Origin: Dehalococcoidia bacterium
GTDB taxonomy: Bacteria > Chloroflexota > Dehalococcoidia > Bin125
Reading direction: 5' to 3'
Length of the DNA stretch: 64,000 nucleotides
Assembly (NCBI GenBank): GCA_965242485.1
Contig: CBDESM010000003.1
Coordinates: 1,819,759 to 1,883,758 of the forward strand
In this document: positions 15,640 to 52,025 of the stretch, piece after piece
Numbering within the stretch: the first letter of the stretch is position 1
Layout of the letters: every line of letters starts with the position of its first letter
Made by a program: the position numbers and the translations under genes
Notes under the pieces: generated by a model
Databases searched by the model: none
Seen by the model: only the letters and a program-made list of their open reading frames with translations
What the model was told of the DNA's origin: nothing

Positions 15640-16233
15640 ATGTCCCGTCTGCCCAAACTGACCCACGACGAGCTCGACGATGATCAGCGCGCCCTCTGGG
15701 AGCACCTCACGACCGGCCCGCGCGCCAATCCCGACCGCCCGCACGGCGGCCTCACGGACGACGACGGCGCGCTCACCGGTCCCTTCAACGCGCTGCTCTA
15801 CTCGCCCAGGATCGGCGACCTCGCCCAAGAACTCGGCGGCGCGCTCCGCTTCGGCACCTCCCTCCCGCGCGACTTGCAGGAAATCGCGATCTGCGTCGTC
15901 GGCGCGCATTGGCGGGCCAACTTCGAGTTCTGGGCGCACGCCCGCATGGCCGTCCAAAACGGCGTCCCCCAAGCCGCCGTCGACGCCATCCAGCGCGGCC
16001 GCCGCCCCGATTTCGACGACCCCCGCCAGGAAACCGCCTACGCCTTCGCCGCCGAGCTGATCAACCACCGCCGCGTCCGACAATCCACCTACGACGCCCT
16101 CGCGGAACTCGTCGGCGAGCGCGGCGTCTTCGAACTCACCAGCACCATGGGCTACTACTCGATGGTCTCCATGAGCCTCGACGTCTTCGAAGTCGGCACT
16201 CCCCCCGGCGTCGATCCTCCCTACCCTGACTGA
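15640..16233 (+). CDS. Carboxymuconolactone decarboxylase (AhpD-like) family protein
   Basis: 197 aa. The CMD-like core is LQEIAICVVGAHWRANFEFWAHARMAVQNGVP. It starts 10 nt after the CoA-transferase stop. Confidence 0.75.
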   Translation: MSRLPKLTHDELDDDQRALWEHLTTGPRANPDRPHGGLTDDDGALTGPFNALLYSPRIGDLAQELGGALRFGTSLPRDLQEIAICVVGAHWRANFEFWAHARMAVQNGVPQAAVDAIQRGRRPDFDDPRQETAYAFAAELINHRRVRQSTYDALAELVGERGVFELTSTMGYYSMVSMSLDVFEVGTPPGVDPPYPD

Positions 16234-16244
16234 AGGAGCCCGCC

Positions 16245-16916
16245 ATGACCACTCTCGTCGCAGATCCGGCCGCCGACCCTGCCATCGATCCTGTCGAGGC
16301 TGCCATCGCCCGCGTCCTTGCCGACAACTGCACGACCAGCGCCCGCCCCGCCTGCCCGATCAGCGAGGACTACCTGCTCGAACTCCAAGCCCGCCACGAA
16401 GGCATCTGGTGCGAAAGCACCGCCGATGGGGAAGTGGTCGTCAGGGGCGTGTCCGATCCCGCGACGTCGGTCGGCGAAGGCTCGCTCATAGCGCAGGTCC
16501 GCGAAGCGGATCTCCTGCCCGGACTCGGCGCGACCCGCGGCGGCAGCGGCGGTTTCCAGATCGAAGGCTGCGGCTTCAAAATCCCCGACGTCAGCTGGAT
16601 CAGCCATGAGCGCGAGCGGGCCGCCTGGCAGTCCGGCAAGGCCTTCCGCGTCTATCTCCCCGCCGCGCCGGAATTCGTGATCGAGGTCAGCTCGCCCAGC
16701 GACAGCCTCACCGCGCTCCGCGAGAAGATGGTCGGCTGGACCACGCACGGCGTCCTCCTCGGCCTCTTGGTCGACCCCCGCTACCGCAACGTCCACATCT
16801 ACCGCGATGGCGAGGAACAGCACGTCCTGCACGCTCCCGACGCCGTCTCCTGCGAACCGGAGATGCCCGGCCTCGTCCTCGACTTCACCTACATCTGGCC
16901 CCTCTTCGACGAGTAA
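16245..16916 (+). CDS. Uma2-family endonuclease-like protein, paralog B
   Basis: 223 aa. It contains ...YLLELQARHEGIWCE...PDVSWISHER...PEFVIEVSSPSDSL..KMVGWTTHGVLLGLLVDP and is colinear with 8515-9174. Confidence 0.85.
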   Translation: MTTLVADPAADPAIDPVEAAIARVLADNCTTSARPACPISEDYLLELQARHEGIWCESTADGEVVVRGVSDPATSVGEGSLIAQVREADLLPGLGATRGGSGGFQIEGCGFKIPDVSWISHERERAAWQSGKAFRVYLPAAPEFVIEVSSPSDSLTALREKMVGWTTHGVLLGLLVDPRYRNVHIYRDGEEQHVLHAPDAVSCEPEMPGLVLDFTYIWPLFDE

Positions 16917-16925
16917 GATCACGCC

Positions 16926-17591
16926 ATGGTCACTGCCGTCCGCCCTGAAGTCCCCGTAGAGGCCATCCGCGAGGCCGAGCGGCGGCTCGATCGGGACTGC
17001 GGCGAGGTCCGTATTCCGCTGCCGTTTCCCATCACCAGCGAATTCCTCGAAGAGCTCAGCATCGAGTATGAGCTCCTGCGGTTCGAGGCCTCAATCGAAG
17101 GAGAGTTGATCATCAGCGGCGCAACCCTTGGCTGGATTCCCGACATCAACCGACTGCTGACGATTCAGCTGAGTCTCTGGATGGAGCTCGGCGCGCTTGG
17201 CGCAGCCGCCGGCACCGACCGCGGCTTCCATCCGCCCGGCTGGTCCTCGCGCGTTCCCGACGTCAGCTGGCTCTCCCCCGAAACCGCTGCCCGCGCTATC
17301 GGCCGCGGCCTGCCCCGCGGCTACTGGCCCGTCGCGCCCGACTTCGTGATCGAGACCAAGTCGCTGACCGACTCGCTGGCGCGGCAGCTGGAGAAGACGC
17401 AGGGCTGGGCCGACCATGGCACCGCCCTCGCGCTCCTCGTCGACCCGGGCGAGCACGCCGTCTACCTCTGCCGGCCCGGTCGGCCCGCGGCCGTCCTGAT
17501 CGATCCGCGCGAAGTCTCCTGCGAACCGGAGATGCCCGGGCTCAGATTCGACTTCACCCGCATCTGGGAACTGGCCGACCTGCCGGCCTGA
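16926..17591 (+). CDS. Uma2-family endonuclease-like protein, paralog C
   Basis: 221 aa. It contains ...FLEELSIEYELLRFE...PDVSWLSPE...PDFVIETKSLTDSL...GWADHGTALALLVDP and starts 9 nt after paralog B. Confidence 0.85.
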   Translation: MVTAVRPEVPVEAIREAERRLDRDCGEVRIPLPFPITSEFLEELSIEYELLRFEASIEGELIISGATLGWIPDINRLLTIQLSLWMELGALGAAAGTDRGFHPPGWSSRVPDVSWLSPETAARAIGRGLPRGYWPVAPDFVIETKSLTDSLARQLEKTQGWADHGTALALLVDPGEHAVYLCRPGRPAAVLIDPREVSCEPEMPGLRFDFTRIWELADLPA

Positions 17592-17711: not shown

Positions 17712-17748
17712 TTGACACTAGACCCCCCCCCCCCGCGTTAATTATCCT
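17712..17748 (+). promoter_or_regulatory. Promoter-like region containing a C12 homopolymer
   Basis: TTGACA lies at 17712-17717. An uninterrupted C12 tract lies at 17723-17734. A/T-rich -10 candidates are TAATTA (17739-17744) and TATCCT (17743-17748). The spacers of 21-25 nt are longer than the optimum. The site is 46-82 nt upstream of the ATG at 17794 (RBS GGAGG). Confidence 0.4.
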
Positions 17749-17793
17749 CAGATATCCGATCCGCGATGTCGGCGCGGGACGCTGGAGGTCACG

Positions 17794-20700
17794 ATGATTG
17801 AGCACTTTTCCGGGCGTGGCGCGCTCATCCGCCGCGCACTGCAATTCACGGCGGCTGCCGCCGTGCTCGGGGCCGCCCTCTTCGCGCTCGCAGCGCCCGC
17901 GCCCGCAGACGCGCAGACCACCGCCGTCAACGCCAACGCCATCGTTTGGGCCCAGCGGCTCGACGACGAGACGGGCGAGCCCATCGATCTGACCCGCGGC
18001 TACTGGCGCTGGCCCTTCGTCAACCGGTTCGAGACGACCGAGGTCGAAACCCTCAAAGTCCGCGTCTACCTGCTCAAGGACACCCGCGACAACGACGGTA
18101 CGGCGCCCTCGCCCAGCGATTACGCCTCCTACGGCGACTTCAGCTCCATCTGGCTCACGCTCAAATCCGCTGCCGGCGGCGGCATCTTCGGCAACCCCCT
18201 GACCACCGCCTCCCTGAAGAACAAGGACGGCAGCGCCGACCTGACCACCGGCGGCAACAACGCGTATCAGAGGAGCATCTCCCCCGCCGTCTGGCACCAG
18301 AACACGGCCGGCTACGTCAGCGGCGCGGCCACCCCGGGCGCCACTGACCGGGTCCAGCCCATCGACATCACCATCGACTTCGGTTCCGGCGGCCTCGGCC
18401 AGAACAACTTCTTCCTCTACACCCGCAAGAACTGCCACAACCCCTGTTCCGGCGGCACCGGCCGCGACAAGGAGTACGAATGGAAGCTCCCCCACCGCGT
18501 CACCGGACTCGGCTGGGGCATGTTCGCTCGGCTCAACGGCGCCACCCCGCCCCAACCCGTCCTCAACGCCGACGGCCAGGCCGCTTGGGACGACATGCAC
18601 TACCTCAACCAGAACGCGGACACGACCCTCACGGTCCGCTTCTACTTCAAGAAGACCGACCCCGACAACCTCACCCTCCGCCCCAGCAAGCCGAGCGACC
18701 CGGACGCCACCTACGCCGACATGGCTTTCGGCCACAGCGTCTACCTCTACCGAGGCGAGACCAACGTCGGCATGACCGGCGTCCGCTACTACAACGTCGG
18801 CACCAACACCCGCTGGGTCGGCTGCAGCAACAGCGGCACGCTCCACGAGTGCCACATGAACAAGGCCACCCTCAAGACCGCCGCCGGCGCGTCGGCCGAC
18901 ACTGAAGAGTCCGACGAGGTCGTCCCCGTCGACTTCGACGTCTTCATCCCCATCGCCGCCGGGGTGGGCGTGGGGGACTACCCGGCCGTCCGCTTCTTCG
19001 GCCGCGGCGGCACCGACTCGAGCCTCGAATCCGGCGGCAACCGCTTCCCGCACGCACTGGGCATGATCAAGCGCCCGACGCTCGACCTGCACCACCGCCG
19101 CAACACTTGGGACCGCGGCGAATCCACCTGCACCCACGGCTACGTCGCCGCCGACACGGCCGCGACCGAAACTGCCGAGCAGCTCGCCGTGATCACTTCC
19201 GACTCCGCCGGCGGCTCGCTCGCCCACAACTGCGGGAGCCTCTCCATCGCCCCGGGCCAGTCGGCCTTCCTCGGCTTCTGGGCCGGCTTCGCCGGGCCCG
19301 ACGCCCACCCGCAGGAATACCTCTGGAACCGCCACGACAAGACCCGCGTCTACGGCTACCGCACCACTCACGCGATGCGCATCCGCGAGTTCGACCGGAT
19401 CACCGTCACCAACAGAGCTGGCTCCTTCGGCATCTCCACCCGCTGCCCCCAGCACAGCTATCTCGATGCTCCGGAAGACCGCTTCTACGACGCCGAGTGG
19501 CCCAAACCGCGCACGCGCGACGGCATGGGCTCCTGCACCGCCACCTCCGTCGCCTGGTACAACGGCGACGCCGAGCGCGCCGCCGGCACCGGGCACGTCG
19601 GGCCCGCCGGGCTCGGCCACATCACGCTCTACCCCACCGACTTCCTCACGGGCACCGCCACCCTCAGCGCCACCGCCTACGGCACCGACCGCGACGGCGA
19701 CGGCGAGCCCGACTGGACCGCGACCGACGAACTCGGGGTCGCGTTCGACTCGTCCAAGAGGACCGTCTCCGCCTCCGACACCTTCGTCGACGGCGAGACC
19801 GACAACTCCCCGCTGGCCGCCTACGTCAGCCGTTCCGACTACAACGGCATGATCTCCCTCAAGGTCGGCCGCCTCGAGCGCCACGCCTTCCCCATCTTCC
19901 CGCAGAAACCCGCCGACCGCGAAGGCGGGCAGCCCTACGCCAGCGTCGCCGAACTCGCCGCCGCCGGCGCCGGCGAGCTGACCTGGCAGGAGGGCCGCAC
20001 CAAGTTCGGCGAGATTGGCGAGTCGCGCGGCGAAGTGCTGGACGGCCGCTACCTCGGCCTCGTCCTCTTCAGCAACCTCGCCGAAGAGGAAGCCGTCCGC
20101 GTCACCGTCAACCGCGGCGTCGTCTCCCACGAAGGCGAAGCCTGCACGGCCTCGGACGACGGCTGCACGCTCAGCCTCAGCCGCGCCGAACTCATGACCA
20201 GCCGCGGCCGCGGCGCATCCGGCGAGGTCGGCGCGGATGACAACGAACCCTTCGTGATCAGCTACCTCGACTACGCGCCCGCCGGCACCGGCCCGGTCAC
20301 CTTCACGGTCCAGGCCTTCCCCGACGACGACGCCTGGCCCGTCGCCGATCCGACCACCTACACCGAAACGGTGCCCACGTTCGATTCCCTCAGCGTCCGC
20401 GCCCTCCTGCTCGACGCCGACGGCGTGCTCGACCCGGGCGACGTCACCGGCGTCACCGTCGGCATCGAATCCGGCGGCCCGACCAGCGCGGCCGGGAACG
20501 CGCTGCTGCTCAACCTCGTCGTCGGCGACGGCATCTACGAGTCCGCGATCGTCAATTCACGGGGAGGCCTGAGCGGCTACGCCAACACGGCCGGCTCCGG
20601 CGCCCTGCACGATTTCTCGAGCGACTCCTACCTCGTCATCAACGGCCCCGCCACCTGGCCGGAGAACGGCGGCAAGCGCCTCCCGCTCGGCAGCGGCAGC

Positions 20701-22362
20701 ACCTTCAGCAAGCTCACCTGCATCTCCACCAACGATCTCGACTCCGGCATCGCCGACGCAGACGCCGCCACCTGCTACGTGGTCGACGCGAACGGCGCGC
20801 GCCCCGAGCTCGCGGTCGACTCCGACGCCGCCGACGGTTCCGACATCACCATCTCCGCCAGCTTCACGGCCGGCCTCGACGGCTTCACCATGGCCCACTG
20901 GCCGGCCGACCTCGACCTCGGCCCCCGCGCCTACCGGCTCGCGTCCGAAGCCTTCGGCTCCGCCACCTTCAGCGTCAAGGACGTCCAGCAGCTGAGCAGC
21001 ATCAGCTTCGGCCGCAAGCCCGCGGCCGACGGCAACGTGCCGAGCGGCCCGATCCGGATCAACGGCAGCGACGGGATCCGCCTGGCGCTGCTGAACGAGG
21101 ACGGCAGGGCCACCCGGCTCGACGCGGTCTCCGCGATCACCGTGACCGTGATCGGCGGCGGCACGCTCACCGGCCTCGGCTGCACCGCGCTCTCCAGCTG
21201 CACCTTCGCGGCCGACGAAGGCCCCCTCTTCGACGCCGCCGAGGCCAACCCGGCCAAGACGGCGCAGATCGACCTGACCTTCAACGCGCCCAAGGATCCG
21301 GGCCGGGCCACGATCGAGGCGACCGTGGTCGGCATCGACGGCATGACCTTCGCCGAGCGGCTCGTGCTGACCGTCTCCGGCTCCGCGGCCGAGATCGCCA
21401 GCAGCGGCGAGATGCCGCGGGTCCACTCCTCGGCCACGACCGACGACGACCGCGACGAGATCAAGATCCCGATCAGCGCCACCGACGCCGACGGCAACGC
21501 CGCGCGGATGCCCGCCAACGCCGCCGCCACGGTGCGCGGCATCGACGGCGCAGTCGTCTCCGCCGGCCGCCTCACCTCCCAGGTCAGCTGCACCGACGAG
21601 GGCCGGCTGAAGTGCAACCTCGAGATCACCGTCACCGCGCCGGCCGGCACGCCGCTCGCCTCGGGCGCGTACACCGCGACCATCACCGGCAGCGGCATCG
21701 GCAGCACCGAAGTCGGCTTCGCCGTCGGCGGCCCGGCCGAGAAGATCAGCCTCGCCGTGCCCGGCACCGCCGACCTGCCCGGCCTGGCCGGCAGCTTCAC
21801 CGCGACCGCGCGCGTGCTCGACAAGGACGACGTCCCCGTCGCCGACGGGACCTGGGTTGCGTTCGACACGACGGCGGCGAGCGGCGGCGCGGAAAGCGCG
21901 ATCGTGACCCGCCCGCCGCTCTCGGACCACGACAACGACACGACGACGGATGACGTGCGCCGCGCGCAGACCAAGAACGGCGAAGCAAGCGCGACCGTCA
22001 CCATCGTCGCCAACGGAATCGCGATCCTCACCGCGACGGTCGGCGACAAGACGGCCAACGAGCCGATCGACACCCGCGCGGAGACGACGGGCGCGGCGGC
22101 GCCGGCCGATGCCGGGCCGCCGCTGCGCTTCGGCACGGCCGACGGCGCGGCCGCGACCGGTTCGCTGGCGACCTGGGCCAGCAACCGGCAGGGCGACGCC
22201 CGCCAGGCGCTGGAGCAGGTGCCCGGCGCGAGCATCGTCTGGCTCTGGAACGGGGTCGAGTGGATCCGCTGGGGCGTGACCGAGGACGGCACGCGGATCC
22301 CCGGCTCCACCAGCTCGCCGTTCGTCATCCTGCAGGGCGACCGCATCTGGTTCGCCAGCTGA
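17794..22362 (+). CDS. Giant secreted protein (1522 aa): unknown Cys/Trp-rich N-terminal half, then Ig-like (Big_1/invasin-type) repeats and a small C-terminal beta domain
   Basis: The signal peptide is ...AAAAVLGAALFALAAPAPADA-QTT. A calcium-type DRDGDGEPD motif is present. The C-terminal half has repeats such as ISATDADGNAARMP...TVTAPAG and ARVLDKDDVPVADGTWVAFDT...ASATVTIVANGIAILTATVGDK. The tail is IVWLWNGVEWIRWGVTEDG...VILQGDRIWFAS. Confidence 0.85.
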   Translation: MIEHFSGRGALIRRALQFTAAAAVLGAALFALAAPAPADAQTTAVNANAIVWAQRLDDETGEPIDLTRGYWRWPFVNRFETTEVETLKVRVYLLKDTRDNDGTAPSPSDYASYGDFSSIWLTLKSAAGGGIFGNPLTTASLKNKDGSADLTTGGNNAYQRSISPAVWHQNTAGYVSGAATPGATDRVQPIDITIDFGSGGLGQNNFFLYTRKNCHNPCSGGTGRDKEYEWKLPHRVTGLGWGMFARLNGATPPQPVLNADGQAAWDDMHYLNQNADTTLTVRFYFKKTDPDNLTLRPSKPSDPDATYADMAFGHSVYLYRGETNVGMTGVRYYNVGTNTRWVGCSNSGTLHECHMNKATLKTAAGASADTEESDEVVPVDFDVFIPIAAGVGVGDYPAVRFFGRGGTDSSLESGGNRFPHALGMIKRPTLDLHHRRNTWDRGESTCTHGYVAADTAATETAEQLAVITSDSAGGSLAHNCGSLSIAPGQSAFLGFWAGFAGPDAHPQEYLWNRHDKTRVYGYRTTHAMRIREFDRITVTNRAGSFGISTRCPQHSYLDAPEDRFYDAEWPKPRTRDGMGSCTATSVAWYNGDAERAAGTGHVGPAGLGHITLYPTDFLTGTATLSATAYGTDRDGDGEPDWTATDELGVAFDSSKRTVSASDTFVDGETDNSPLAAYVSRSDYNGMISLKVGRLERHAFPIFPQKPADREGGQPYASVAELAAAGAGELTWQEGRTKFGEIGESRGEVLDGRYLGLVLFSNLAEEEAVRVTVNRGVVSHEGEACTASDDGCTLSLSRAELMTSRGRGASGEVGADDNEPFVISYLDYAPAGTGPVTFTVQAFPDDDAWPVADPTTYTETVPTFDSLSVRALLLDADGVLDPGDVTGVTVGIESGGPTSAAGNALLLNLVVGDGIYESAIVNSRGGLSGYANTAGSGALHDFSSDSYLVINGPATWPENGGKRLPLGSGSTFSKLTCISTNDLDSGIADADAATCYVVDANGARPELAVDSDAADGSDITISASFTAGLDGFTMAHWPADLDLGPRAYRLASEAFGSATFSVKDVQQLSSISFGRKPAADGNVPSGPIRINGSDGIRLALLNEDGRATRLDAVSAITVTVIGGGTLTGLGCTALSSCTFAADEGPLFDAAEANPAKTAQIDLTFNAPKDPGRATIEATVVGIDGMTFAERLVLTVSGSAAEIASSGEMPRVHSSATTDDDRDEIKIPISATDADGNAARMPANAAATVRGIDGAVVSAGRLTSQVSCTDEGRLKCNLEITVTAPAGTPLASGAYTATITGSGIGSTEVGFAVGGPAEKISLAVPGTADLPGLAGSFTATARVLDKDDVPVADGTWVAFDTTAASGGAESAIVTRPPLSDHDNDTTTDDVRRAQTKNGEASATVTIVANGIAILTATVGDKTANEPIDTRAETTGAAAPADAGPPLRFGTADGAAATGSLATWASNRQGDARQALEQVPGASIVWLWNGVEWIRWGVTEDGTRIPGSTSSPFVILQGDRIWFAS

Positions 22363-22443: not shown

Positions 22444-23427
22444 TCAGCTCGCCGCCGGTTCCGCCTTCGCCTCGCGCTGCTGCACCAGCGCCGAGCCGAT
22501 CATCAGCAGCGCCACGCCCGCGATCAGCTCGTAGCCGACCGCCTCCCCCAGCACCAGCCAGCTCAGGATCACCCCGAAGAACGGCGTCGAGATCTGGGTC
22601 GCCGCCACCCGGCTGGGCAGGTAGCGCTGCAGCAGCCAGGCGTTGCCGATGAACCCGAACCCGGCGATCACCAGGCCCTGGTAGAGCAGCGCCGCGATCA
22701 GCTCCCAGGGCCACTGCCAGGGCTCCGTCTCGAAGCCGGCCGAGATCGCCGCGAAGGCCGGCACCGCGAAGACCGCCTGCGCCGCCAGCAGCTTGACCGG
22801 GGCGACGTTCTGCGAGGCCTGCGAGATGTAGATCAGCCGCCCCCCGAGCAGCGCCGCCTGCACCACCAGCATCAGATCCCCGTCCAGCCCGACGCCCTCC
22901 TCGCCCGTCAGATCGCCCGCGAACACGACCACGACGCCGCTGTAGGCGATCAGCGTGCCCAGCGCGCGCCGCCGCGTCATCCGGTCGCCCGGCACCAGGA
23001 AGTGCGCGAACACCGCCGCCCAGAGCGGATGCGTCGAGGTCAGCACCACCGCGTGCCCCGCCGTCGTGCGGTCGCCGCCCAGGTACATCAGCGAGGTCTG
23101 CGCGATGAACAGCAGCCCGATCCCGGCCAGCGGCAGCAGCTCCCGCCGCGTCGGCCGGATCGATTGCCGCGTGATCAGCGCGTACGCCGCCACCGCGATC
23201 CCGCCCAGCGACATCCGCAGCATCGCCAGCCGGATCGGCCCCGAGTACTTCAGGCCCTCCTTGACCGCGACCGGGTTCCCGCCCCAGATCGCCGCCAGCA
23301 GCATCGCGAATGCGCCGCCGCCCAGCGTCAGCTGCTTCCGCTCCGGCCGCGCCCCAATCGGCGCGCGGCTCGGCGCTCGGCCCGGCGCCCCCGCGCGCGG
23401 CTGCGGTCCGGCCTGCCCCGCCGACAT
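22444..23427 (-). CDS. EamA/DMT-superfamily transporter, paralog 1
   Basis: 327 aa with about 10 hydrophobic segments. The EamA-like start is LLAAIWGGNPVAVKEGL, followed by ...HPLWAAVFAHFLVPGDRMTRRRALGTLIAYSGVVVV. The exact start is uncertain because there is no clear RBS. Confidence 0.85.
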   Translation of the reverse strand: MSAGQAGPQPRAGAPGRAPSRAPIGARPERKQLTLGGGAFAMLLAAIWGGNPVAVKEGLKYSGPIRLAMLRMSLGGIAVAAYALITRQSIRPTRRELLPLAGIGLLFIAQTSLMYLGGDRTTAGHAVVLTSTHPLWAAVFAHFLVPGDRMTRRRALGTLIAYSGVVVVFAGDLTGEEGVGLDGDLMLVVQAALLGGRLIYISQASQNVAPVKLLAAQAVFAVPAFAAISAGFETEPWQWPWELIAALLYQGLVIAGFGFIGNAWLLQRYLPSRVAATQISTPFFGVILSWLVLGEAVGYELIAGVALLMIGSALVQQREAKAEPAAS

Positions 23428-23446
23428 TCACGCAGGGTACGCGCCG

Positions 23447-24520
23447 CTACCGCTCCGCCCGCTCCTCCCGGCTCTCCAGTTCCTCCTCCTCCGGCTCCTC
23501 CACTTGCTCCCCTTGCCCTTCCTCCTCGGCCGCCGCGGCTTCCGGCTCGTCATCCTGCACGCCGAACGGCCGCCGCGGCGAGATCGCGAATCCGATCAGC
23601 ACGATCGCCAGCCCGATGCCCAGCTCCATGCCGATCGGCTCGTCCAGAATCGCCCAGCCGAAGAACACCCCGAAGATCGGGATCACCATCTGCTGCGACA
23701 GGATCCGCGACGGCTTGAATTGCTGCAGCAGCCGCGTGTTCACGACCAGCCCCGTCCCCGCCATCAGCACCCCGTTGTAGACCATCGCGATCAGCAGCTC
23801 CGAGTGCCATTCCCCGAGCCCGTCATCGAAGGCCAGCGTCGCCCCGAGCATCACCGGCAGCGCGATCAGCACTTCCCAGAACACGATCTTGACCGGTTCG
23901 ATGTGCTGGCTCAGCCGCGCCACCGAGACCTGCCGCACCGCCAGCGTCGCCGCCGCCACCAGCATCACGAAGTCGCCCGACACCTCCACGCCCGGATCCG
24001 AAAAATGCCGGCTGAACACCACCAGCAGCCCCGAGTAGACGATGATCGTCCCGGCCACGGATCTGCGCCCCAGCTGATCGCCCGGAATCAGGAAGTGCGC
24101 CAGCAGCATCGCGATCGCCGGATTGGTCCCGAAGATCACCGCCGAGTGCGAGGCGCTCGTATGCAGCGTCCCGTAATGCACCGCCGCGGTATGCCCCGCG
24201 AACAGCAGCCCCATCAGCAGCAGCTGCAGCCAGTCCCGCCCGTGCGGCAGCAGCGAGCGGCGCAGCACGATCGCCTGCAGTAGCACCACGCCGGCGCCCA
24301 CCGCCAAGCGCAGCGCCCCCACCCGCAGCGGGTGGTTGTCCTCCAAGCTCAGCTTGATCGCGACCGGGCTGCCGCCCCACAGCGCCGCCAGCGTCCACGA
24401 GATGATGTCGCCCCGCAGCGTGGGCTCTTGCCACGCATAGGGGGGGTGCCCCCATGGGTCTCCCGGCAGCCCGCCGCCCGGCTGCGGTTCCGTATCGCCA
24501 GAGTGCGGACCTGCCATCAT
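23447..24520 (-). CDS. EamA/DMT-superfamily transporter, paralog 2, with an acidic C-terminal tail
   Basis: 357 aa. It contains TLAALWGGSPVAIKLSL...NPAIAMLLAHFLIPGDQLGRRSVAGTIIVYSGLLVV. The tail is EPEAAAAEEEGQGEQVEEPEEEELESREERAER. Confidence 0.85.
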   Translation of the reverse strand: MMAGPHSGDTEPQPGGGLPGDPWGHPPYAWQEPTLRGDIISWTLAALWGGSPVAIKLSLEDNHPLRVGALRLAVGAGVVLLQAIVLRRSLLPHGRDWLQLLLMGLLFAGHTAAVHYGTLHTSASHSAVIFGTNPAIAMLLAHFLIPGDQLGRRSVAGTIIVYSGLLVVFSRHFSDPGVEVSGDFVMLVAAATLAVRQVSVARLSQHIEPVKIVFWEVLIALPVMLGATLAFDDGLGEWHSELLIAMVYNGVLMAGTGLVVNTRLLQQFKPSRILSQQMVIPIFGVFFGWAILDEPIGMELGIGLAIVLIGFAISPRRPFGVQDDEPEAAAAEEEGQGEQVEEPEEEELESREERAER

Positions 24521-24548: not shown

Positions 24549-25670
24549 TTACCGCCCCTGTTCGACGGTCCAGGCCCGCACCGACAGCACCGCCGCCAAG
24601 TGCGTCCGCAGCGTCGTCCAGCTCTCCCCCGCGTCCGCGCTCGCCAGCAGTTCGCCCCCGCTCGTGCCCAAATACAGCCCCAGCGGATCGCCGCCGTCCG
24701 TCCCCAGCGCCTGCCGGTACACGGTCTGGTGGAAATCGGACTCCGGCAGCCCCCGCGTCAGCGGCTGCCAAGTCGCGCCCGCATCGCGCGTGCGGAACAC
24801 GACCAGCCTCCCCCCGCGCGGCATCCGCGCCTGATCCTGATCCAGCGGCACGAACCAGGCCGCGTCCGGATCGCGCGGGTCGATCGCCGTCGCGAACCCG
24901 AACTCGCCCGGCAGCCCCTCGCCCACGTCGACCCAGCTCTCGCCGCCGTCGTCCGAGCGGTACTGGCCCCAGTGGTTCTGCTGCCAGATCCGCTTCGCAT
25001 CCGCCGGATGCGCGTGCATCGAATGCACTCAATGCCCCGCCGTCTCCTCCGGGAAGAACTCCAGCATCTCCGGCGGCAGATGCAGCGCCTTCACGCCCAG
25101 GTTCCGCGGCGTCCAGCTCTCCCCTCCGTCGTCCGAGGTGTAGCAGCCCATCGCCGACCCGGCGATCGTCAGCCGGTCCGGATTCTCCGCATCCACCCCG
25201 ATGTGGTGCAGCGACAGCCCCGCCGCGCCGGCCATCCAGCCCCCCCGCGTCGGATGGTTGAGCAGGCTCTCGCAAAGCTCCCAGCTCGCGCCGTCGTCGC
25301 GGCTGATGAACAGCGCCGCCGGGTCCACCCCCGCGTACAACTCCCCCTCGCGCCCGCCCGGCTCGATCGTCCACACGTTCCGCACCGAATCCCCGCCCCC
25401 GTCCGCCTCCACCGATGTTCCCTCCGGAAACGCCGGCGTCCCCGCCTCGTCCCAAGTCGCCCCGCCGTCGTCCGAGCGGTGCAGCCGCGGCCCCCACTGT
25501 TCGTGCGACGCGCCCGCCCAGAGCGTCCCCGTCCTCGGATCCCGCATTGCATAATCCACCTGCCAGCCCGCGATCGCCAGCGGCTGCCACTCCCACTCCG
25601 AACGTCCCCCGCGGCTGCGCCCGATCACCAGCCCCTTCTTCGTGCTCGCCAGCACTCCCGCCTCGCTCAT
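24549..25670 (-). CDS. BNR/Asp-box six-bladed beta-propeller (sialidase-like fold) interrupted by an in-frame TGA at 25029-25031. It is either a Sec candidate or a pseudogene/split gene.
   Basis: Track ORFs 25029-25670 and 24549-25028 are contiguous in one frame. There are six Asp-boxes: RSDDGGATW, SRDDGASW, TSDDGGESW, then the TGA, then RSDDGGESW, TRDAGATW, SADAGESW. RBS GGAGGAG precedes the ATG at 25670, which overlaps the upstream stop (ATGA). Confidence 0.75.
24996..25012 (-). promoter_or_regulatory. Hairpin 3' of the in-frame UGA (SECIS-like candidate)
   Basis: The mRNA reads UGA-GUGCAUUCGAUGCAC-G-CGCAUCC-GGC-GGAUGCG. The second stem has 7 bp and its loop G is about 24 nt after the UGA. 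A first 6-bp hairpin abuts the UGA directly (25028-25014). Confidence 0.3.
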
Positions 25671-25999
25671 CTCGCTCCTCCTCTCCGCCGGACGCCGTCC
25701 GTCGAATCCGGATCATCCCCGCCCCCGCCGCCCGAAACGGCCGCGAGGATATGCACCCGATCTCCGTCCGCCAAACCGTCCGACAGCCGCTTCCGATCCC
25801 GCACCATCGCCTCGTTCACGAACACGTTCACATGCCGCCTCAGCCGTCCCTGATCATCCAGCACGAATTTCCGAATCTGCGGCAGTTCCCCCGCCAGCGC
25901 CGACAACGCCTCCGCGACCGTCGTCCCCTCCACCACCGCCGATTCCGGCGCATCCATATGCTCCCGCAGCCCCCGCGCCAAGAAAATCTCCACGGCCAT
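25667..25999 (-). CDS. MoaD/ThiS-family ubiquitin-like sulfur-carrier protein with a 19-aa extension beyond the GG
   Basis: The sequence is MAVEIFLARGLREHMD...TVAEALSALAGELPQIRKFVLDD...VNVFVNEAMV...LADGDRVHILAAVSGG, followed by GGGDDPDSTDGVRRRGGAR. Its stop overlaps the next ATG (ATGA at 25667-25670). Confidence 0.78.
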   Translation of the reverse strand: MAVEIFLARGLREHMDAPESAVVEGTTVAEALSALAGELPQIRKFVLDDQGRLRRHVNVFVNEAMVRDRKRLSDGLADGDRVHILAAVSGGGGGDDPDSTDGVRRRGGAR

Positions 26000-27613: not shown

Positions 27614-28341
27614 GGGATATTCACCAATCCTTCTCCCTTGAATCTTCCTCCCGAATTCCGCAGCAGCTTGCGCTCAATGACCTCGAATCGAAGGTTCCCC
27701 TGAGGCCGCTCAATCACCCGCCTTGCGATCGGATAGGCGATCAGGTCTGCGATTTCCAGTCCGATCAACCCGGCGGCTTTAGTCTCAAATTCCATATCGG
27801 GCTGCACGAAGATTCGCTCCTTCAGCACGCGCCGAAACGACATCACGTCGTTCCTTAGTCGTCGATCTTCTTTCTGCCCCCGTGCCTCGAACACGATCCG
27901 GGCAAGACCGTCTCCGTGTCCGCCCAGATTCAACCAATGTTCGATTCGCTCCAGCCCGATGCTCACGCAGAGCGGATATGGGTCAATGGCCTCTGCTGGC
28001 TCCTGCGACGGGAGCCTCTTGTCAATCGCAACGGCTGAGATGTGGAAAGGCGCCGCGTCAACCGCATCGCCGAGATCGCCTGCAAACGACCGCCAAGCTG
28101 CGTTGCTCTTGAGCGTGGCAGCGGGCCCCTGCCGCATTCGGATGTCCCGCTCATGCAGCGGCGCATCACGCCGCCCGAAATGCCGCAGCTTCAGCTCCTC
28201 GAACAGCGGCGCCACTTCGTCCCGGTAAACGCCTTCCTCGAACACGCACATCGCCACTACGAACACGGGAAACTCCGGATCGTCACGGAGATCCGATGTC
28301 CCGCTCTCATCTCCGAACACCAGGTACGTCTCGTCGGCCAT
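27607..28341 (-). CDS. DUF3800-family protein on a low-GC islet
   Basis: 244 aa. The N-terminal YLVFGDESGTS fits the DUF3800 xDESG start, and LIGLEIADLIAYPIAR lies near the C-terminus. It uses many A/T-ending codons (gat, ttt, att, aat, gaa, aaa) and a TAA stop, unlike neighbouring genes. Confidence 0.7.
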   Translation of the reverse strand: MADETYLVFGDESGTSDLRDDPEFPVFVVAMCVFEEGVYRDEVAPLFEELKLRHFGRRDAPLHERDIRMRQGPAATLKSNAAWRSFAGDLGDAVDAAPFHISAVAIDKRLPSQEPAEAIDPYPLCVSIGLERIEHWLNLGGHGDGLARIVFEARGQKEDRRLRNDVMSFRRVLKERIFVQPDMEFETKAAGLIGLEIADLIAYPIARRVIERPQGNLRFEVIERKLLRNSGGRFKGEGLVNIPR

Positions 28342-28396
28342 GCCCGCGCACTCTACGCCCGCCCTCTATCCTGCATCCGCAGCAAGGAGTTCCCCC

Positions 28397-29392
28397 ATGC
28401 GACTAGGCATCCTCGCCGGCTTCTCGGACGACTGGCGCGACACGCTCGAGAAGGTCCGGATCGCCGAAGACCTCGGCTACGAACTCGTCGCCACCGGCGA
28501 AGCTTGGGGCCCTTCCATCGTCCCTTGGCTCTCCACCCTCGCGGCCAACACCGAGAAGATCCAGATCGGTTCCTCGATCCTCAACTGCTTCTCCCGCTCG
28601 CCCGCCGCCATCGCCCAGGAATTCGCGGCCCTTGAGGTCATCTCCGGCGGGCGCATGGTCTGCGGGCTCGGCTCCTCCGGCAACCTCGTGATCGAGGGCT
28701 TCCACGGCGCGGAATTCGACCGTCCCCTCCGCCGCCTCCGCGAGTACACCGAAATCATCAAGATGCTGCTGCGCGGCCAGCGCCTCGCCTATGAAGGCCA
28801 GATCTACCAACTCGCCCGCGGCTTCCGGATCGACTACGAGGTCCAGCGCGAAGACGTCCCCGTCTACATCGCCGCCATCACCCCGCGCTCGATCGAGCAG
28901 ACCGCGCAAGTCGCCGACGGCATCTTCCCGATCCACTGGCCCCTCCGCGCCTTCCAGCCGCTCCGCGATCAGCTCGCCACCGCCTCGACGGCCGCCGGCA
29001 GGCCCGCCGACAGCGTCACCATCGCTCCCTTCACCAACGTCTACGTCCTCGGCGAAGGCCGGGACGACGACGAGGTCTGGCGCAGCGCCCGCCAGCCGCT
29101 CTTCCACTACACCAACCGCATGGGTTCCTTCTACTGGCAGATGCTCGCCCGCTCGGGCTTCGAGGCCGACGTCGCCGCCTCCCGCGACGCTTGGAGCGAC
29201 CGCGACGCCGAAGGCGCGCTGATGGCCTTCAGCGAAGACATGGTCCGTGAAATCCAAGTCATCGGCTCCCTCGAGGAGGTGCGCGAACGCCTCCAAGAGC
29301 GTTCCGACGCCGGCGCCGACATCCAGATGGTCCCGATGCCGGCGGGCTCTCCGCAGGAAGCCGGCCAGCGCCTCGAAGCCTACCTGCGCTGA
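28397..29392 (+). CDS. Luciferase-like monooxygenase (LLM) class, probably F420-dependent oxidoreductase
   Basis: MRLGILAGFSDDW...LGYELVATGEAWGPS...ALEVISGGRMVCGLGSSG.... The ATG at 28397 has RBS AAGGAG 7 nt upstream. Confidence 0.85.
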   Translation: MRLGILAGFSDDWRDTLEKVRIAEDLGYELVATGEAWGPSIVPWLSTLAANTEKIQIGSSILNCFSRSPAAIAQEFAALEVISGGRMVCGLGSSGNLVIEGFHGAEFDRPLRRLREYTEIIKMLLRGQRLAYEGQIYQLARGFRIDYEVQREDVPVYIAAITPRSIEQTAQVADGIFPIHWPLRAFQPLRDQLATASTAAGRPADSVTIAPFTNVYVLGEGRDDDEVWRSARQPLFHYTNRMGSFYWQMLARSGFEADVAASRDAWSDRDAEGALMAFSEDMVREIQVIGSLEEVRERLQERSDAGADIQMVPMPAGSPQEAGQRLEAYLR

Positions 29393-29396
29393 CCCG

Positions 29397-29654
29397 ATGC
29401 CTTCCCCCGAAGCCGTCCTCGAGATCGAAGTCGTCTACTGCGCCGACTGCGGCTACTGGCCCCGCACCGCCTGGATGCTCGGCGAGCTCCTCACCGACAT
29501 CCAGCACCTCGTCAAGTCGGTGCGCCTGGTCCCCGACTCGCTCGGCCTCTTCGAGTGGAAAGTCAACGGCGACCTCGTCTTCAGCAAGGCCGCGATGGGC
29601 CGCTTCCCCGAAATGGACGAACTCCGCGAACTCATCTACGCGCATCTTGACTAG
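29397..29654 (+). CDS. Rdx (SelW/SelT/SelH-like) family protein, CxxC (Cys) form
   Basis: 85 aa. LEIEVVYCADCGYWPRTAWMLGELL...VRLVPDSLGLFEWKVNGDLVFSKAAMGRFPEMDEL matches the Rdx pattern (IxYCxxCxW..RA.W...EL...P...G.FEV...G.L..SK...GRFPE). It starts 4 nt after the LLM stop. Confidence 0.85.
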   Translation: MPSPEAVLEIEVVYCADCGYWPRTAWMLGELLTDIQHLVKSVRLVPDSLGLFEWKVNGDLVFSKAAMGRFPEMDELRELIYAHLD

Positions 29655-31771: not shown

Positions 31772-32302
31772 ATGGCCGCAACCGTCACCGTCCTCGACCC
31801 GCAGGCGCATGTCGCCGTCCGCGAGGCCTCCGCCGCGCCCCGGCTCCAGTCCCTTCAGGGACTCCGCCCCGGCATTCTCGAAAACCGCAAGGCCAACGCG
31901 CGGCTGCTGATGGAGACGATGGTCGACGGCCTCCGCGCCCGAACCGAGCTCGGCCCGCTCGTCGTCGGCTCCAAGCCGGTCGCCGGCCCGCCTTCCGCAT
32001 CCACCATTGCGGCCCTCCGCAACGACGCCGACTTCCTCCTGATCGGCTCCTGCGATTGAGGCTCCTGCACGACGTGGAGTGTCCACGCCGCCGTCCTCTT
32101 CGAAGGCTTCGGAATCCCCACCGTCACGATCGGCACTTCCGCCTTCACCGATCTGCTCCAGCTCGAAGCCGAACAGCGCGGCCTGCCCGAGCTCCGGCGC
32201 ATCATCGTGCCCCATCCGATCGGCGGCCTCAAGCCCGAAGCGATCGGCGGCAAGGTCGGCGGAGACGTGATCGACCAGCTGCAAGCGGCGCTCACCGAAT
32301 GA
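31772..32302 (+). CDS. Candidate selenoprotein, 176 aa with Sec at codon 96 (D-U-G-S-C, a UxxC motif)
   Basis: Track ORF 31772-32059 ends in a TGA, but the frame stays open for 80 more codons: ...DADFLLIGSCD[TGA]GSCTTWSVHAAVLFEGFGIPTVTIGTSAF...DQLQAALTE. High GC3 is maintained and the tail has no start or RBS of its own. The final TGA (32300-32302) overlaps the next ATG (32299). Confidence 0.7.
32071..32090 (+). promoter_or_regulatory. SECIS-like hairpin 3' of the UGA at 32057
   Basis: The upper stem pairs 32073-32077 (CGUGG) with 32083-32087 (CCACG), with apical loop AGUGU. A possible lower G:C pair (32071/32088) leaves A32072 bulged. The hairpin starts 12-14 nt after the UGA. Confidence 0.35.
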
Positions 32303-35188: not shown

Positions 35189-35225
35189 CGCGTACCCTCT
35201 TCCCGTCACAGGTTAGGAGCTCCTC

Positions 35226-36062
35226 ATGCGGCACGGCGTCTTCATCTTCGCGACCGACCAGGCGATGGACGTGGTCGAACTCGCCCGCGCGGTCGAAGAT
35301 CGCGGCTTCGAGTGCTTCTTCGTGCCCGAGCACGTCCACATGCCGATCGAGCGCGAGACCCCCTTCCCGCTGACGCCCGACGGCTCCCTGCCGGAGGAGT
35401 ACCGCCGCATCCACGATCCCTTCGTCGCCCTCGCCGCGGCCGCCGGCGCGACCTCCGAGATCAAGCTCGGCACCGGCATCTGCCTCGTCACCGAGCACGA
35501 GCCGATCGCCCTCGCCAAGCAGATCGCCAGCCTCGACCTGATCTCCGGCGGGCGCTTCCTCTTCGGCATCGGCGCGGGCTGGCTGGCCGAGGAGATGGAG
35601 CCGCTCGGCGTCCGCTTCGCCGACCGCTGGAAGGTCACCGACCAGCGCATCGCCGCGATGAAGGCGATGTGGAGCGAGGACGAAGCCGAGTTCCATTCCG
35701 AGTTCGTCGACATCCCCAAGACCGCGGTGATCCCTAAGCCGGTCCAGCAGCCGCACCCGCCGATCCTGCTCGGCGCGGGCAGCAAGTGGGCCCGCCAGCG
35801 CGTGGTCGACTACTGCGACGGCTGGCTGCCCAACGTGCCCGCTCCGCGCTTCGTCGAACGCGGCATCCAGGACATCCAGTCGCGCGCCGCCGAAGCCGGG
35901 CGCGATTTCGACACGATCAGCATCAACGTCTTCGGCGCCGACCCCGAGGCCAAGCTCGAGTACGAGCGGATGGGCGTCGACCGCTGCATCCACCGCCTGC
36001 CCCACGCCGGCGCCGGGGAGGTCGTCGCCGAACTCGACCGCCTGGCCGAACTGGTGCTCTAG
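35226..36062 (+). CDS. LLM-class F420-dependent oxidoreductase
   Basis: 278 aa. It contains MRHGVFIFATDQAMDVVELARAVEDRGFECFFVPEHVHMP...ASLDLISGGRFLFGIGAGW. RBS AGGAG is present. Confidence 0.85.
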   Translation: MRHGVFIFATDQAMDVVELARAVEDRGFECFFVPEHVHMPIERETPFPLTPDGSLPEEYRRIHDPFVALAAAAGATSEIKLGTGICLVTEHEPIALAKQIASLDLISGGRFLFGIGAGWLAEEMEPLGVRFADRWKVTDQRIAAMKAMWSEDEAEFHSEFVDIPKTAVIPKPVQQPHPPILLGAGSKWARQRVVDYCDGWLPNVPAPRFVERGIQDIQSRAAEAGRDFDTISINVFGADPEAKLEYERMGVDRCIHRLPHAGAGEVVAELDRLAELVL

Positions 36063-51412: not shown

Positions 51413-52025
51413 GGCGTGGGTCGCGGGGCTCGCGGCCGGCTACCTGCTCGGGTCGATTCCGACGGGGCTGTGGGTCGGCAAATGGCGCGGCGGCGGCGAT
51501 ATCCGCGCCAGCGGCAGCGGGCGCACCGGCGCCACCAACGCCTTCCGCAAGCTGGGGCTGAAATGGTCGCTGCTGGTGCTCGCCATCGACGCGGCGAAGG
51601 GGGCCGCGCCGATCCTGATCATCGGCGCGGCGTTCGACAGCCCGACCGGCGAAGTGCTGGGCGGGCTGGCGGCGATCTTCGGGCACCAGTTCCCGCTCTT
51701 CGCCGGCTTCCGCGGCGGGCGCGGCGCGGCGACGGCGCTGGGCGCGACCTTGGCCGCGCTGCCCTTCGCCATCGCCTGCGCGGTCGCGGCCGCGGCCCCG
51801 CTGCTCTGGCGCACCCGCGTGATGTCGCTCTCCGTCCTGATCGGCGCGACCGCCGGCGCCGCGGCGGTCGGGGTCTTCGCGGCCTTCGGCGGCCTTGACG
51901 GCGCATACATCGGCTACGCCGTCGGGGCCTGGCTGCTGATCGTCGTCGGCCACCGCGACAACATCGAGCGGATCGCGGGGGGAACCGAGCGCGTGTTCGG
52001 CGAAACGCCGGCGGAGACGGGCTGA
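51405..52025 (+). CDS. plsY: Glycerol-3-phosphate acyltransferase PlsY
   Basis: GYLLGSIPTGLWVG...SGSGRTGATNAFR...FGHQFPLFAGFRGGRGAATALG...HRDNIERI. The GTG start at 51405 overlaps the end of der. Confidence 0.88.
   Translation: MIEAWVAGLAAGYLLGSIPTGLWVGKWRGGGDIRASGSGRTGATNAFRKLGLKWSLLVLAIDAAKGAAPILIIGAAFDSPTGEVLGGLAAIFGHQFPLFAGFRGGRGAATALGATLAALPFAIACAVAAAAPLLWRTRVMSLSVLIGATAGAAAVGVFAAFGGLDGAYIGYAVGAWLLIVVGHRDNIERIAGGTERVFGETPAETG

Follow-up and report, generated by a model that had tools for sequence, protein, structure and literature searches.

An Asp-box propeller gene with an in-frame TGA in a Dehalococcoidia bacterium: a probable selenoprotein with a ThiS-like partner

Known bacterial selenoproteins, such as those of the UGSC family (NF041046) and FdhA, carry an in-frame UGA codon at the position where their homologs have a Cys; a hairpin whose loop starts with a G lies 16-37 nt downstream of this codon, and the selenocysteine (Sec) and Cys forms of these proteins are scattered over the tree. 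Sec/Cys exchange is dynamic among bacterial selenoproteins (PMC1794560), selenoproteins have been recorded in Chloroflexi, and full Sec gene sets have been recorded in several Planctomycetes. Here we report that a propeller gene displays the same three features. It lies on a 64,000-nucleotide stretch of contig CBDESM010000003.1 (assembly GCA_965242485.1, forward-strand positions 1,819,759 to 1,883,758; hereafter the window) from a Dehalococcoidia bacterium of the phylum Chloroflexota. As judged from comparison with homologous genes, the two adjacent open reading frames (ORFs) seen at this locus very probably form one gene for a 373-residue selenoprotein, with the UGA at codon 214 read as Sec.

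A TGA codon at the Cys column of a propeller gene

ORF 25670..25029 (213 codons, ATG start) and ORF 25028..24549 (159 codons, TAA stop) lie in the same minus-strand frame, and their sole separator is the TGA at 25031-25029. This arrangement had been recognized in an earlier reading of the window made without database searches (the sequence-only reading), and it is correct. The junction reads ...EETAGH[TGA]VHSMHAHPADAKRIWQQNHWGQYRSDDGGESW, i.e. ...EETAGH[TGA]VHSMHAHPADAKRIW..., and the fused translation contains six Asp-boxes, three on each side of the TGA as that reading had counted, the fifth of which starts with T in place of S (TRDAGATW). The features of the gene are as follows (blade numbers are those of the predicted fold described below):

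25032..25670, minus strand: propeller codons 1-213, blades 1-4, three Asp-boxes
25029..25031, minus strand: in-frame TGA, codon 214, the proposed Sec codon, which aligns with the Cys of G-[HQT]-C-[VI]-H
24549..25028, minus strand: propeller codons 215-373 and TAA stop, blades 5-7 and C-terminal closing strand, three Asp-boxes
24996..25012, minus strand: candidate bacterial selenocysteine insertion sequence (SECIS) hairpin CGCAUCC-GGC-GGAUGCG, 7-bp stem, folding free energy (dG) -9.3 kcal/mol
25014..25028, minus strand: hairpin GUGCAU-UCG-AUGCAC, which abuts the UGA and is also found in Cys orthologs

With the fused translation as query, 2,912 homologs were found at E < 1e-10, of which we aligned the best 120. 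The TGA column was occupied by Cys in all 119 full-length homologs of this alignment, within the motif G-[HQ]-C-[VI]-H; the remaining protein, P0047, has 213 residues, is 84% identical and ends exactly at the junction. In a protein search from one Planctomycetota member, the column was Cys in 105 of 106 full-length homologs and Trp in one, and 13 truncated clusters stopped exactly one residue before it. The Cys that the sequence-only reading expected, in a C-V-H context, in single-chain homologs is therefore real. It opens a longer motif of fixed spacing, C-[VI]-H-x10-R-x3-Q-x-H-x-G-x-Y-R-S-D-D-x-G-x2-W. Exact look-ups of the window's 213-residue product and of P0004 gave no match.

We scanned DNA for this post-Cys motif with its first codon fixed as TGA, which retrieved 12 GTDB species genomes, all of them Planctomycetota metagenome-assembled genomes (MAGs), and 20 Joint Genome Institute (JGI) metagenome contigs. 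In every one of these loci the frames were homologous and open on both sides of the TGA. The upstream frame measured ~215-250 codons where the contig reaches that far, and the downstream frame 152-172 codons where the contig includes the natural stop. In viral_contigs, the motif was found neither with TGY nor with TGA as its first codon. In the window's own Chloroflexota lineage, the TGA is kept in five independent assemblies (the window, L001, L036, L037 and L038). L001, the contig of P0047, has the same TGA, an open frame beyond it and the gene order of the window; the P0047 cluster comprises seven distinct 213-residue members from different contigs, i.e. N-terminal calls ending ...AAGH. Since the same TGA is read in L001, L036, L037 and L038, an assembly error or a private mutation is ruled out. 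Two-gene versions in relatives, which the sequence-only reading had weighed as a point against recoding, do exist as gene calls; since each turns out to be interrupted by a TGA in place of the Cys codon, they support Sec.

Both halves of the gene are under purifying selection. In the comparison of the window with L001, the post-TGA half showed 0.16 synonymous (dS) and 0.02 non-synonymous (dN) substitutions per site, with a dN/dS of 0.14-0.15, and the N-terminal half a dN/dS of 0.34; a pseudogene is excluded because dN/dS is low on both sides of the TGA in this pair. The dN/dS of the post-TGA half was 0.10-0.34 over nine Sec-form pairs, this one included, and eight further Sec-form pairs gave values of 0.08-0.48 in both halves, with dS up to ~1.1. 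The TGA was conserved across a dS of 0.16-0.31 in the window clade and up to ~1 in Planctomycetota, and no other in-frame stop or disruption was found in any of the 34 TGA-bearing genes.

We placed 23 Sec and 78 Cys forms on a neighbor-joining tree: they are intermingled, and their distribution requires at least 13 state changes, all at one codon. The window clade is nested within TGC-bearing orthologs that are 73-82% identical, and the TGC of the closest Cys orthologs is one substitution away from TGA. Such repeated one-codon changes, always to TGA at the invariant Cys, have the appearance of Sec/Cys exchange (PMC1794560). Nonsense decay and gene splitting do not fit, because the TGA recurs at one codon and this codon is always that of the invariant Cys.

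Downstream hairpins, Sec decoding and rival readings of the TGA

Decoding would follow the standard bacterial route, in which an mRNA hairpin that closely follows the UGA recruits SelB with its Sec-tRNA(Sec); here this hairpin is most likely CGCAUCC-GGC-GGAUGCG at 25012-24996. Sec would then replace the otherwise invariant Cys with which the innermost strand of blade 5 begins, and the product would contain the junction peptide ...ETAGH-U-VHSMHAHPADAK. Sec insertion itself, the identity of the SelB-binding hairpin and the ThiS chemistry proposed further below are all three what we infer from the comparisons presented here.

In the bacterial SECIS (bSECIS) model (PMC13188914, Fig. 2A), an upper stem of 4-16 bp carries a loop of 3-9 nt with a G in the first two loop positions, the spacing from the UGA is 16-37 nt, and the minimum free energy is at most -7.5 kcal/mol. 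Both hairpins described in the sequence-only reading are present, GUGCAU-UCG-AUGCAC at 25028-25014 and CGCAUCC-GGC-GGAUGCG at 25012-24996, and the 60-nt fold after the UGA has a z of -2.4 relative to shuffled sequences. The second hairpin agrees with the model on all four counts (GGC loop, 7-bp stem, 23-nt spacing, -9.3 kcal/mol): its loop, at 25005-25003, begins 23 nt past the UGA and hence falls within the bacterial distance range, as had been proposed. It is identical across the five assemblies, and a K-to-Q change in L037 and L038 adds a G-C pair. The first hairpin, by contrast, is not Sec-specific and was rejected as a SECIS: the TGC orthologs L034 and L035 carry GUGCAU-UCG-AUGCAC as well, and L001 and L036 have only a degraded version of it. 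It is a by-product of V-H-S-M-H coding with no part in the mechanism.

Among 31 distinct Sec forms, 30 have a G at position 1 or 2 of the apical loop, and in these 30 the loop starts 25-36 nt from the U of the UGA. The stem sequences vary by lineage: the main Planctomycetota clade has CCCGGC-GNN-GCCGGG, L002 has GCGGGCGC-CGGGU-GCGCCUGC, with a weaker variant in L010, and L032 has AUCCGGCCA-GGUC-UGGCCGGAU. In 24 of the 31 Sec forms the hairpin is among the best 5% when all windows of the gene are ranked. For the comparison with Sec forms at the DNA level, the sample comprised the DNA of six Cys forms and of one Trp form; second-position hairpins were stronger in Sec than in Cys forms (one-sided p = 0.014, uncorrected for relatedness).

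A further in-frame TGA on the same contig indirectly supports Sec decoding in this organism. The Sec candidate that the sequence-only reading had placed 7 kb away is a probable UGSC-family selenoprotein gene with its TGA kept in L036:

31772..32302, plus strand: putative UGSC-family gene with in-frame TGA 32057-32059 (NF041046, E = 1e-29)

The match, ~7 kb from the propeller TGA, covers profile positions 2-147 of 147. The gene has the motif CD-U-GSC at the TGA and a hairpin at 32070-32090 with a GUG loop, a 19-nt spacing and a dG of -9.5 kcal/mol, and gene callers divide it into two ORFs. UGSC is listed in the 2026 catalogue of 119 prokaryotic selenoprotein families. Reassignment of the genetic code was rejected, TGA being the commonest ordinary stop in the window (23 of 41 ORFs). 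Of the Sec-form genes, 32 have their natural stop within the contig, and in 16 of these it is a TGA; the ThiS-like gene that overlaps the propeller gene ends in TGA as well.

Two other loci in the window were considered in this respect. At 29397-29654 (plus strand) lies an Rdx/SelW-like gene (PF10262 in the syntenic L036), which is here a Cys form (YCADCGY) and not a Sec form. The same-frame TGA at 52023-52025 (plus strand), between PlsY and GpsA, was rejected as a case of recoding: a GTG start follows two codons on, and these are ordinary adjacent genes.

Several observations weigh against decoding of the propeller TGA as Sec. One group concerns the hairpin. About 46% of arbitrary codons in window genes (genome of 70% GC) precede a hairpin that passes loose bSECIS criteria, and ~15% precede one that passes stricter ones (stem >= 6 bp, dG <= -9); since 15-46% of arbitrary codons pass similar tests, the second hairpin is weak evidence. 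It ranks only in the top 11-13% of the 30-nt windows of its own gene, and comparable second-position hairpins occur in some Cys orthologs (L035, L040 and L041). The base-rate test and the hairpins in Cys forms led us to downgrade hairpin presence as a discriminator of Sec and Cys forms, and, in a genome of 70% GC, the hairpins are not clearly above chance. The synonymous-site entropy of the stem codons has its minimum at P8 (0.23 bits, against 0.24 at another Pro column), which is suggestive only. The covariance search that the sequence-only reading proposed gave no SECIS-type match in Rfam, either over the whole window at the gathering threshold or over 24800-25200 at E <= 10. Overall, of the two hairpins put forward, the second fits the SECIS consensus and discriminates weakly: it is necessary and consistent with Sec, yet indecisive.

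The other points against Sec concern the machinery and the column. We found no selA, selB, selD or tRNA-Sec in the 64-kb window, nor in the loci retrieved for comparison: 30 further window ORFs, annotated with Pfam, included no selA, selB or selD, and tRNA-Sec was not found in the window or in 35 loci. It is only the UGSC gene that points to Sec machinery in this genome, and this gene scores 103 bits on NF041046, for a curated cutoff of 125. As to the column, a single homolog, P0378 (locus L039), has Trp there; the codon is a genuine TGG, so that a TGA read under code 4 was rejected. P0378 may descend from a form that lost its Sec, or may be inactive. The distant relative 3b7f has Asp at the column.

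The best-surviving alternative, although an improbable one, is selenium-free read-through, in which a near-cognate tRNA (Trp or Cys) or a suppressor tRNA would decode the UGA at low efficiency and yield a protein that is not a selenoprotein. It has on its side the TGG of one homolog, the Sec machinery not found in the window and the non-specific hairpin. However, the TGA is paired exclusively with an invariant Cys column, which is the signature of Sec/Cys families (PMC1794560), and a putative member of UGSC, a catalogued selenoprotein family, carries a conserved TGA on the same contig. Moreover, G-leading apical loops lie at SECIS distance in 30 of the 31 Sec forms, and a mostly-Trp product at an invariant Cys is unlikely under such purifying selection.

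We regard as still less likely a split gene, whose 213- and 159-residue polypeptides would be produced by a restart at the adjoining GTG and assemble non-covalently. A GTG does directly follow the TGA in the window gene and abuts it in most Sec forms, gene callers annotate two ORFs, and split propellers are structurally conceivable. However, GUC, GUU or GUA, which are not start codons, follows the TGA in four Sec forms (L013, L033, L021 and L017), and there is no conserved ribosome-binding site: as the sequence-only reading had remarked of this GTG, no convincing site precedes it, the only GGAGG, 17 nt 5' of the GTG, being too distant and not kept in the relative L001. The break is always TGA, never TAA or TAG, and always replaces the most conserved Cys, which splitting would just delete. 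A split gene would also require at least 13 independent origins at one codon, and closure of the propeller needs pairing of the C-terminal strand with blade 1. Finally, a recent TGC-to-TGA nonsense mutation that inactivated the gene, for which speaks the single substitution between the TGC of the closest Cys orthologs and TGA, has a negligible probability and is effectively refuted by the selection and recurrence data (TGA conserved over a dS of 0.16-0.31 and ~1 with a downstream dN/dS of 0.10-0.34, no further disruption in 34 genes, the same codon altered repeatedly in two phyla, and TGA assembled independently from several samples). Of the three options set out in the sequence-only reading, Sec is thus strongly supported, and the nonsense mutation and the split gene are rejected.

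A side observation concerns the origin of the hairpin. The peptide H-P-x-x-P-[GDE], 7-12 residues past the Cys/Sec, is encoded by CCG-rich codons (CAY CCG ... CCG GRN), and a CCGG/CCGG-type stem arises from it even in some Cys forms (nt 23-39 past the Cys codon in L035, nt 24-38 past it in L041, where the loop is CAA, with no leading G). This coding may pre-adapt the site for a Cys-to-Sec switch; since it is already SECIS-like and at the right distance, a single TGC-to-TGA change may suffice. The Cys-form hairpins are a tractable system in which to study the origin of SECIS elements.

Fold, ThiS-like partner and gene neighborhood

The propeller protein matches the sequence of 3b7f, a seven-bladed Asp-box propeller, over its full length (E = 2e-58). 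We made an AlphaFold2 model of the closest Cys ortholog, P0001 (predicted local distance difference test, pLDDT, 94; predicted template modeling score, pTM, 0.92), whose best fold match was again 3b7f (TM-score 0.87), followed by GH74, DAIP, Ycf48 and sortilin. The strands of the model fall into seven groups, which we read as seven predicted blades. Cys214 follows a flexible loop and begins the first strand of blade 5; the first strand of a propeller blade is the innermost one. The C-terminal strand closes the propeller against blade 1. With seven blades predicted, and 213 versus 159 codons, the TGA would fall between blades 4 and 5 and not at the midpoint, so that the exact halving described in the sequence-only reading does not hold. 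A truncated product of 213 residues, devoid of blades 5-7 and of the closing strand, is predicted to be unable to form a propeller.

The six-bladed, sialidase-like propeller of that reading also gives way to a seven-bladed, 3b7f-like one: no sialidase occurs among the top 50 PDB fold matches of the P0001 model, and PF13088 (sialidase) stays below threshold (21.6 versus 31.4 bits). Both halves give weak BNR and Sortilin-Vps10 matches in Pfam (PF15902 and PF14870), and no NCBIfam model reaches its cutoff for the propeller protein. The family comprises ~400 clusters at 50% identity (E <= 1e-30), whose members are labeled 'exo-alpha-sialidase', 'glycosyl hydrolase' or 'PSII stability factor-like' in databases. 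The sialidase and glycosyl hydrolase labels are mislabels.

In essentially all loci examined, a gene for a small ThiS/MoaD/SAMP-like protein is adjacent to the propeller gene or fused with it. It is located upstream in Chloroflexota and immediately downstream in Planctomycetota, and forms an N-terminal fusion in other members. No other conserved neighbor was found among these loci. In the window, the partner is:

25667..25999, minus strand: ThiS/MoaD/SAMP-like ubiquitin-fold gene (PF02597, 46.6 bits)

The Pfam cutoff is 22.5 bits, and the NCBIfam SAMP1 model gives 55 bits for a cutoff of 60. The propeller ATG (25670-25668) overlaps the TGA stop of this gene (ATGA). All ThiS-like partners share the motif ...[AI][IV]SGG. 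The Gly-Gly is free in most Planctomycetota partners; in the fusions it is internal and followed by a linker, and in the window protein AVSGG is followed by a tail of ~20 residues (GGGDDPDSTDGVRRRGGAR). In the window partner, the Gly-Gly is either exposed by processing or unused as a free C-terminus.

Known ThiS/MoaD-type partners employ reactive Cys or thiocarboxylate chemistry. We tentatively put forward that the Cys/Sec is a catalytic residue, redox-active or nucleophilic, whose target would be the C-terminus of the ThiS-like protein in a thiocarboxylated or activated form. The residue could, for example, accept or transfer the sulfur of the partner thiocarboxylate via an acyl-(seleno)sulfide or persulfide intermediate. 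It is, with a shade less confidence, conceivable that the propeller and its partner constitute an unrecognized two-gene enzyme system, in which an active-site Cys/Sec performs sulfur or selenium transfer, or redox chemistry, on a Gly-Gly thiocarboxylate. If true, this two-gene Cys/Sec system would contain the first selenoenzyme built on a beta-propeller. Natural exchange between Sec and Cys strongly points to a residue with a catalytic role, redox or nucleophilic, which gives a first concrete functional handle on a widespread family of ~400 clusters with a solved structure (3b7f), and the near-obligatory ThiS/MoaD partner points to directly testable sulfur-carrier chemistry.

The rest of the neighborhood is more variable. 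Directly downstream of the propeller gene, at 22444-24520 (minus strand), lie two tandem EamA-family transporter genes, an arrangement kept in L035 and L037 and not in the Planctomycetota loci. A 1,546-residue ORF with no Pfam match (17722-22362, plus strand) stands beside two tandem genes of the Uma2 family, a family of putative restriction endonucleases (16230-17591, plus strand); its counterpart in L037 is a 1,515-residue ORF with three Uma2 genes. Genes for F420-dependent LLM-class oxidoreductases are present at 28340-29392 and 35217-36062 (both plus strand), the second of which reaches the curated cutoff of TIGR03619, and PNPOx-like, PhyH dioxygenase and DUF6282 genes lie close by. This set of genes is consistent with a metabolism of the Chloroflexota or Actinomycetota type, and the seryl-tRNA synthetase encoded in the window assigns it to uncultured Chloroflexota.

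Comparison with known systems

None of the 119 families in the 2026 catalogue of prokaryotic selenoproteins is a BNR, Asp-box or propeller family. Likewise, the propeller family appears neither in the deep-Sep paper and its supplements nor in the main text on BSepDB, it is not listed in the Planctomycetes selenoprotein table, bar one unresolvable 'hypothetical' entry, and our literature search found no paper joining selenoprotein terms with the annotation names of the family. As a selenoprotein, the propeller is a new family using a known decoding mechanism. The prokaryotic selenoproteome would thereby gain a family whose fold is unlike the thioredoxin-like or metal-cofactor folds typical of the catalogue. 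There is also a practical side: annotation pipelines cut the Chloroflexota copies and many Planctomycetota MAG copies into two 'hypothetical' or 'BNR' ORFs, and a family model that flags Sec would repair these split annotations.

The closest relative of known structure, 3b7f (Reut_B4987 / YP_299179.1 of Ralstonia eutropha, annotated as 'putative glycosyl hydrolase with BNR repeats'), has the same seven-bladed Asp-box fold. It differs from the window protein in reading GH-D-PHC: the Sec/Cys column is occupied by Asp, and a Cys follows three residues further on. It thus belongs to a more distant branch of the family without Cys at the column. The GH74 xyloglucanases, Ycf48/HCF136, DAIP and the sortilin Vps10 domain have the same seven-bladed Asp-box architecture (TM-score 0.5-0.6), but they are only 12-22% identical, have no conserved Cys/Sec-His motif, are not linked to ThiS/MoaD and are not selenoproteins. 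The exo-alpha-sialidases of family GH33 have Asp-box (BNR) repeats in common with the window propeller. However, they are six-bladed, whereas the window protein has seven predicted blades, no signal peptide-like N-terminus, and a context of ThiS, RidA and EamA instead of sugar metabolism.

With regard to its partner, the locus resembles the ThiS, MoaD, CysO, SAMP and Urm1 systems, in which a gene for a beta-grasp protein ending in Gly-Gly likewise lies beside, or is fused to, the gene for an enzyme (ThiG, MoaE, CysM or Ahp1 as partners). Here, the beta-grasp protein is paired with a propeller, the conserved neighborhood includes no E1-like (MoeB/ThiF) or JAMM gene, and an extension in the window protein, or a linker in the fusions, masks the Gly-Gly. 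With regard to the selenoproteins, which it resembles in its UGA, its hairpin and its scattered Sec and Cys forms, the propeller protein differs in its fold, which is neither thioredoxin-like nor of a metal-cofactor type, and in its local motif, which is U-[VI]-H in place of UxxC or CxxU.

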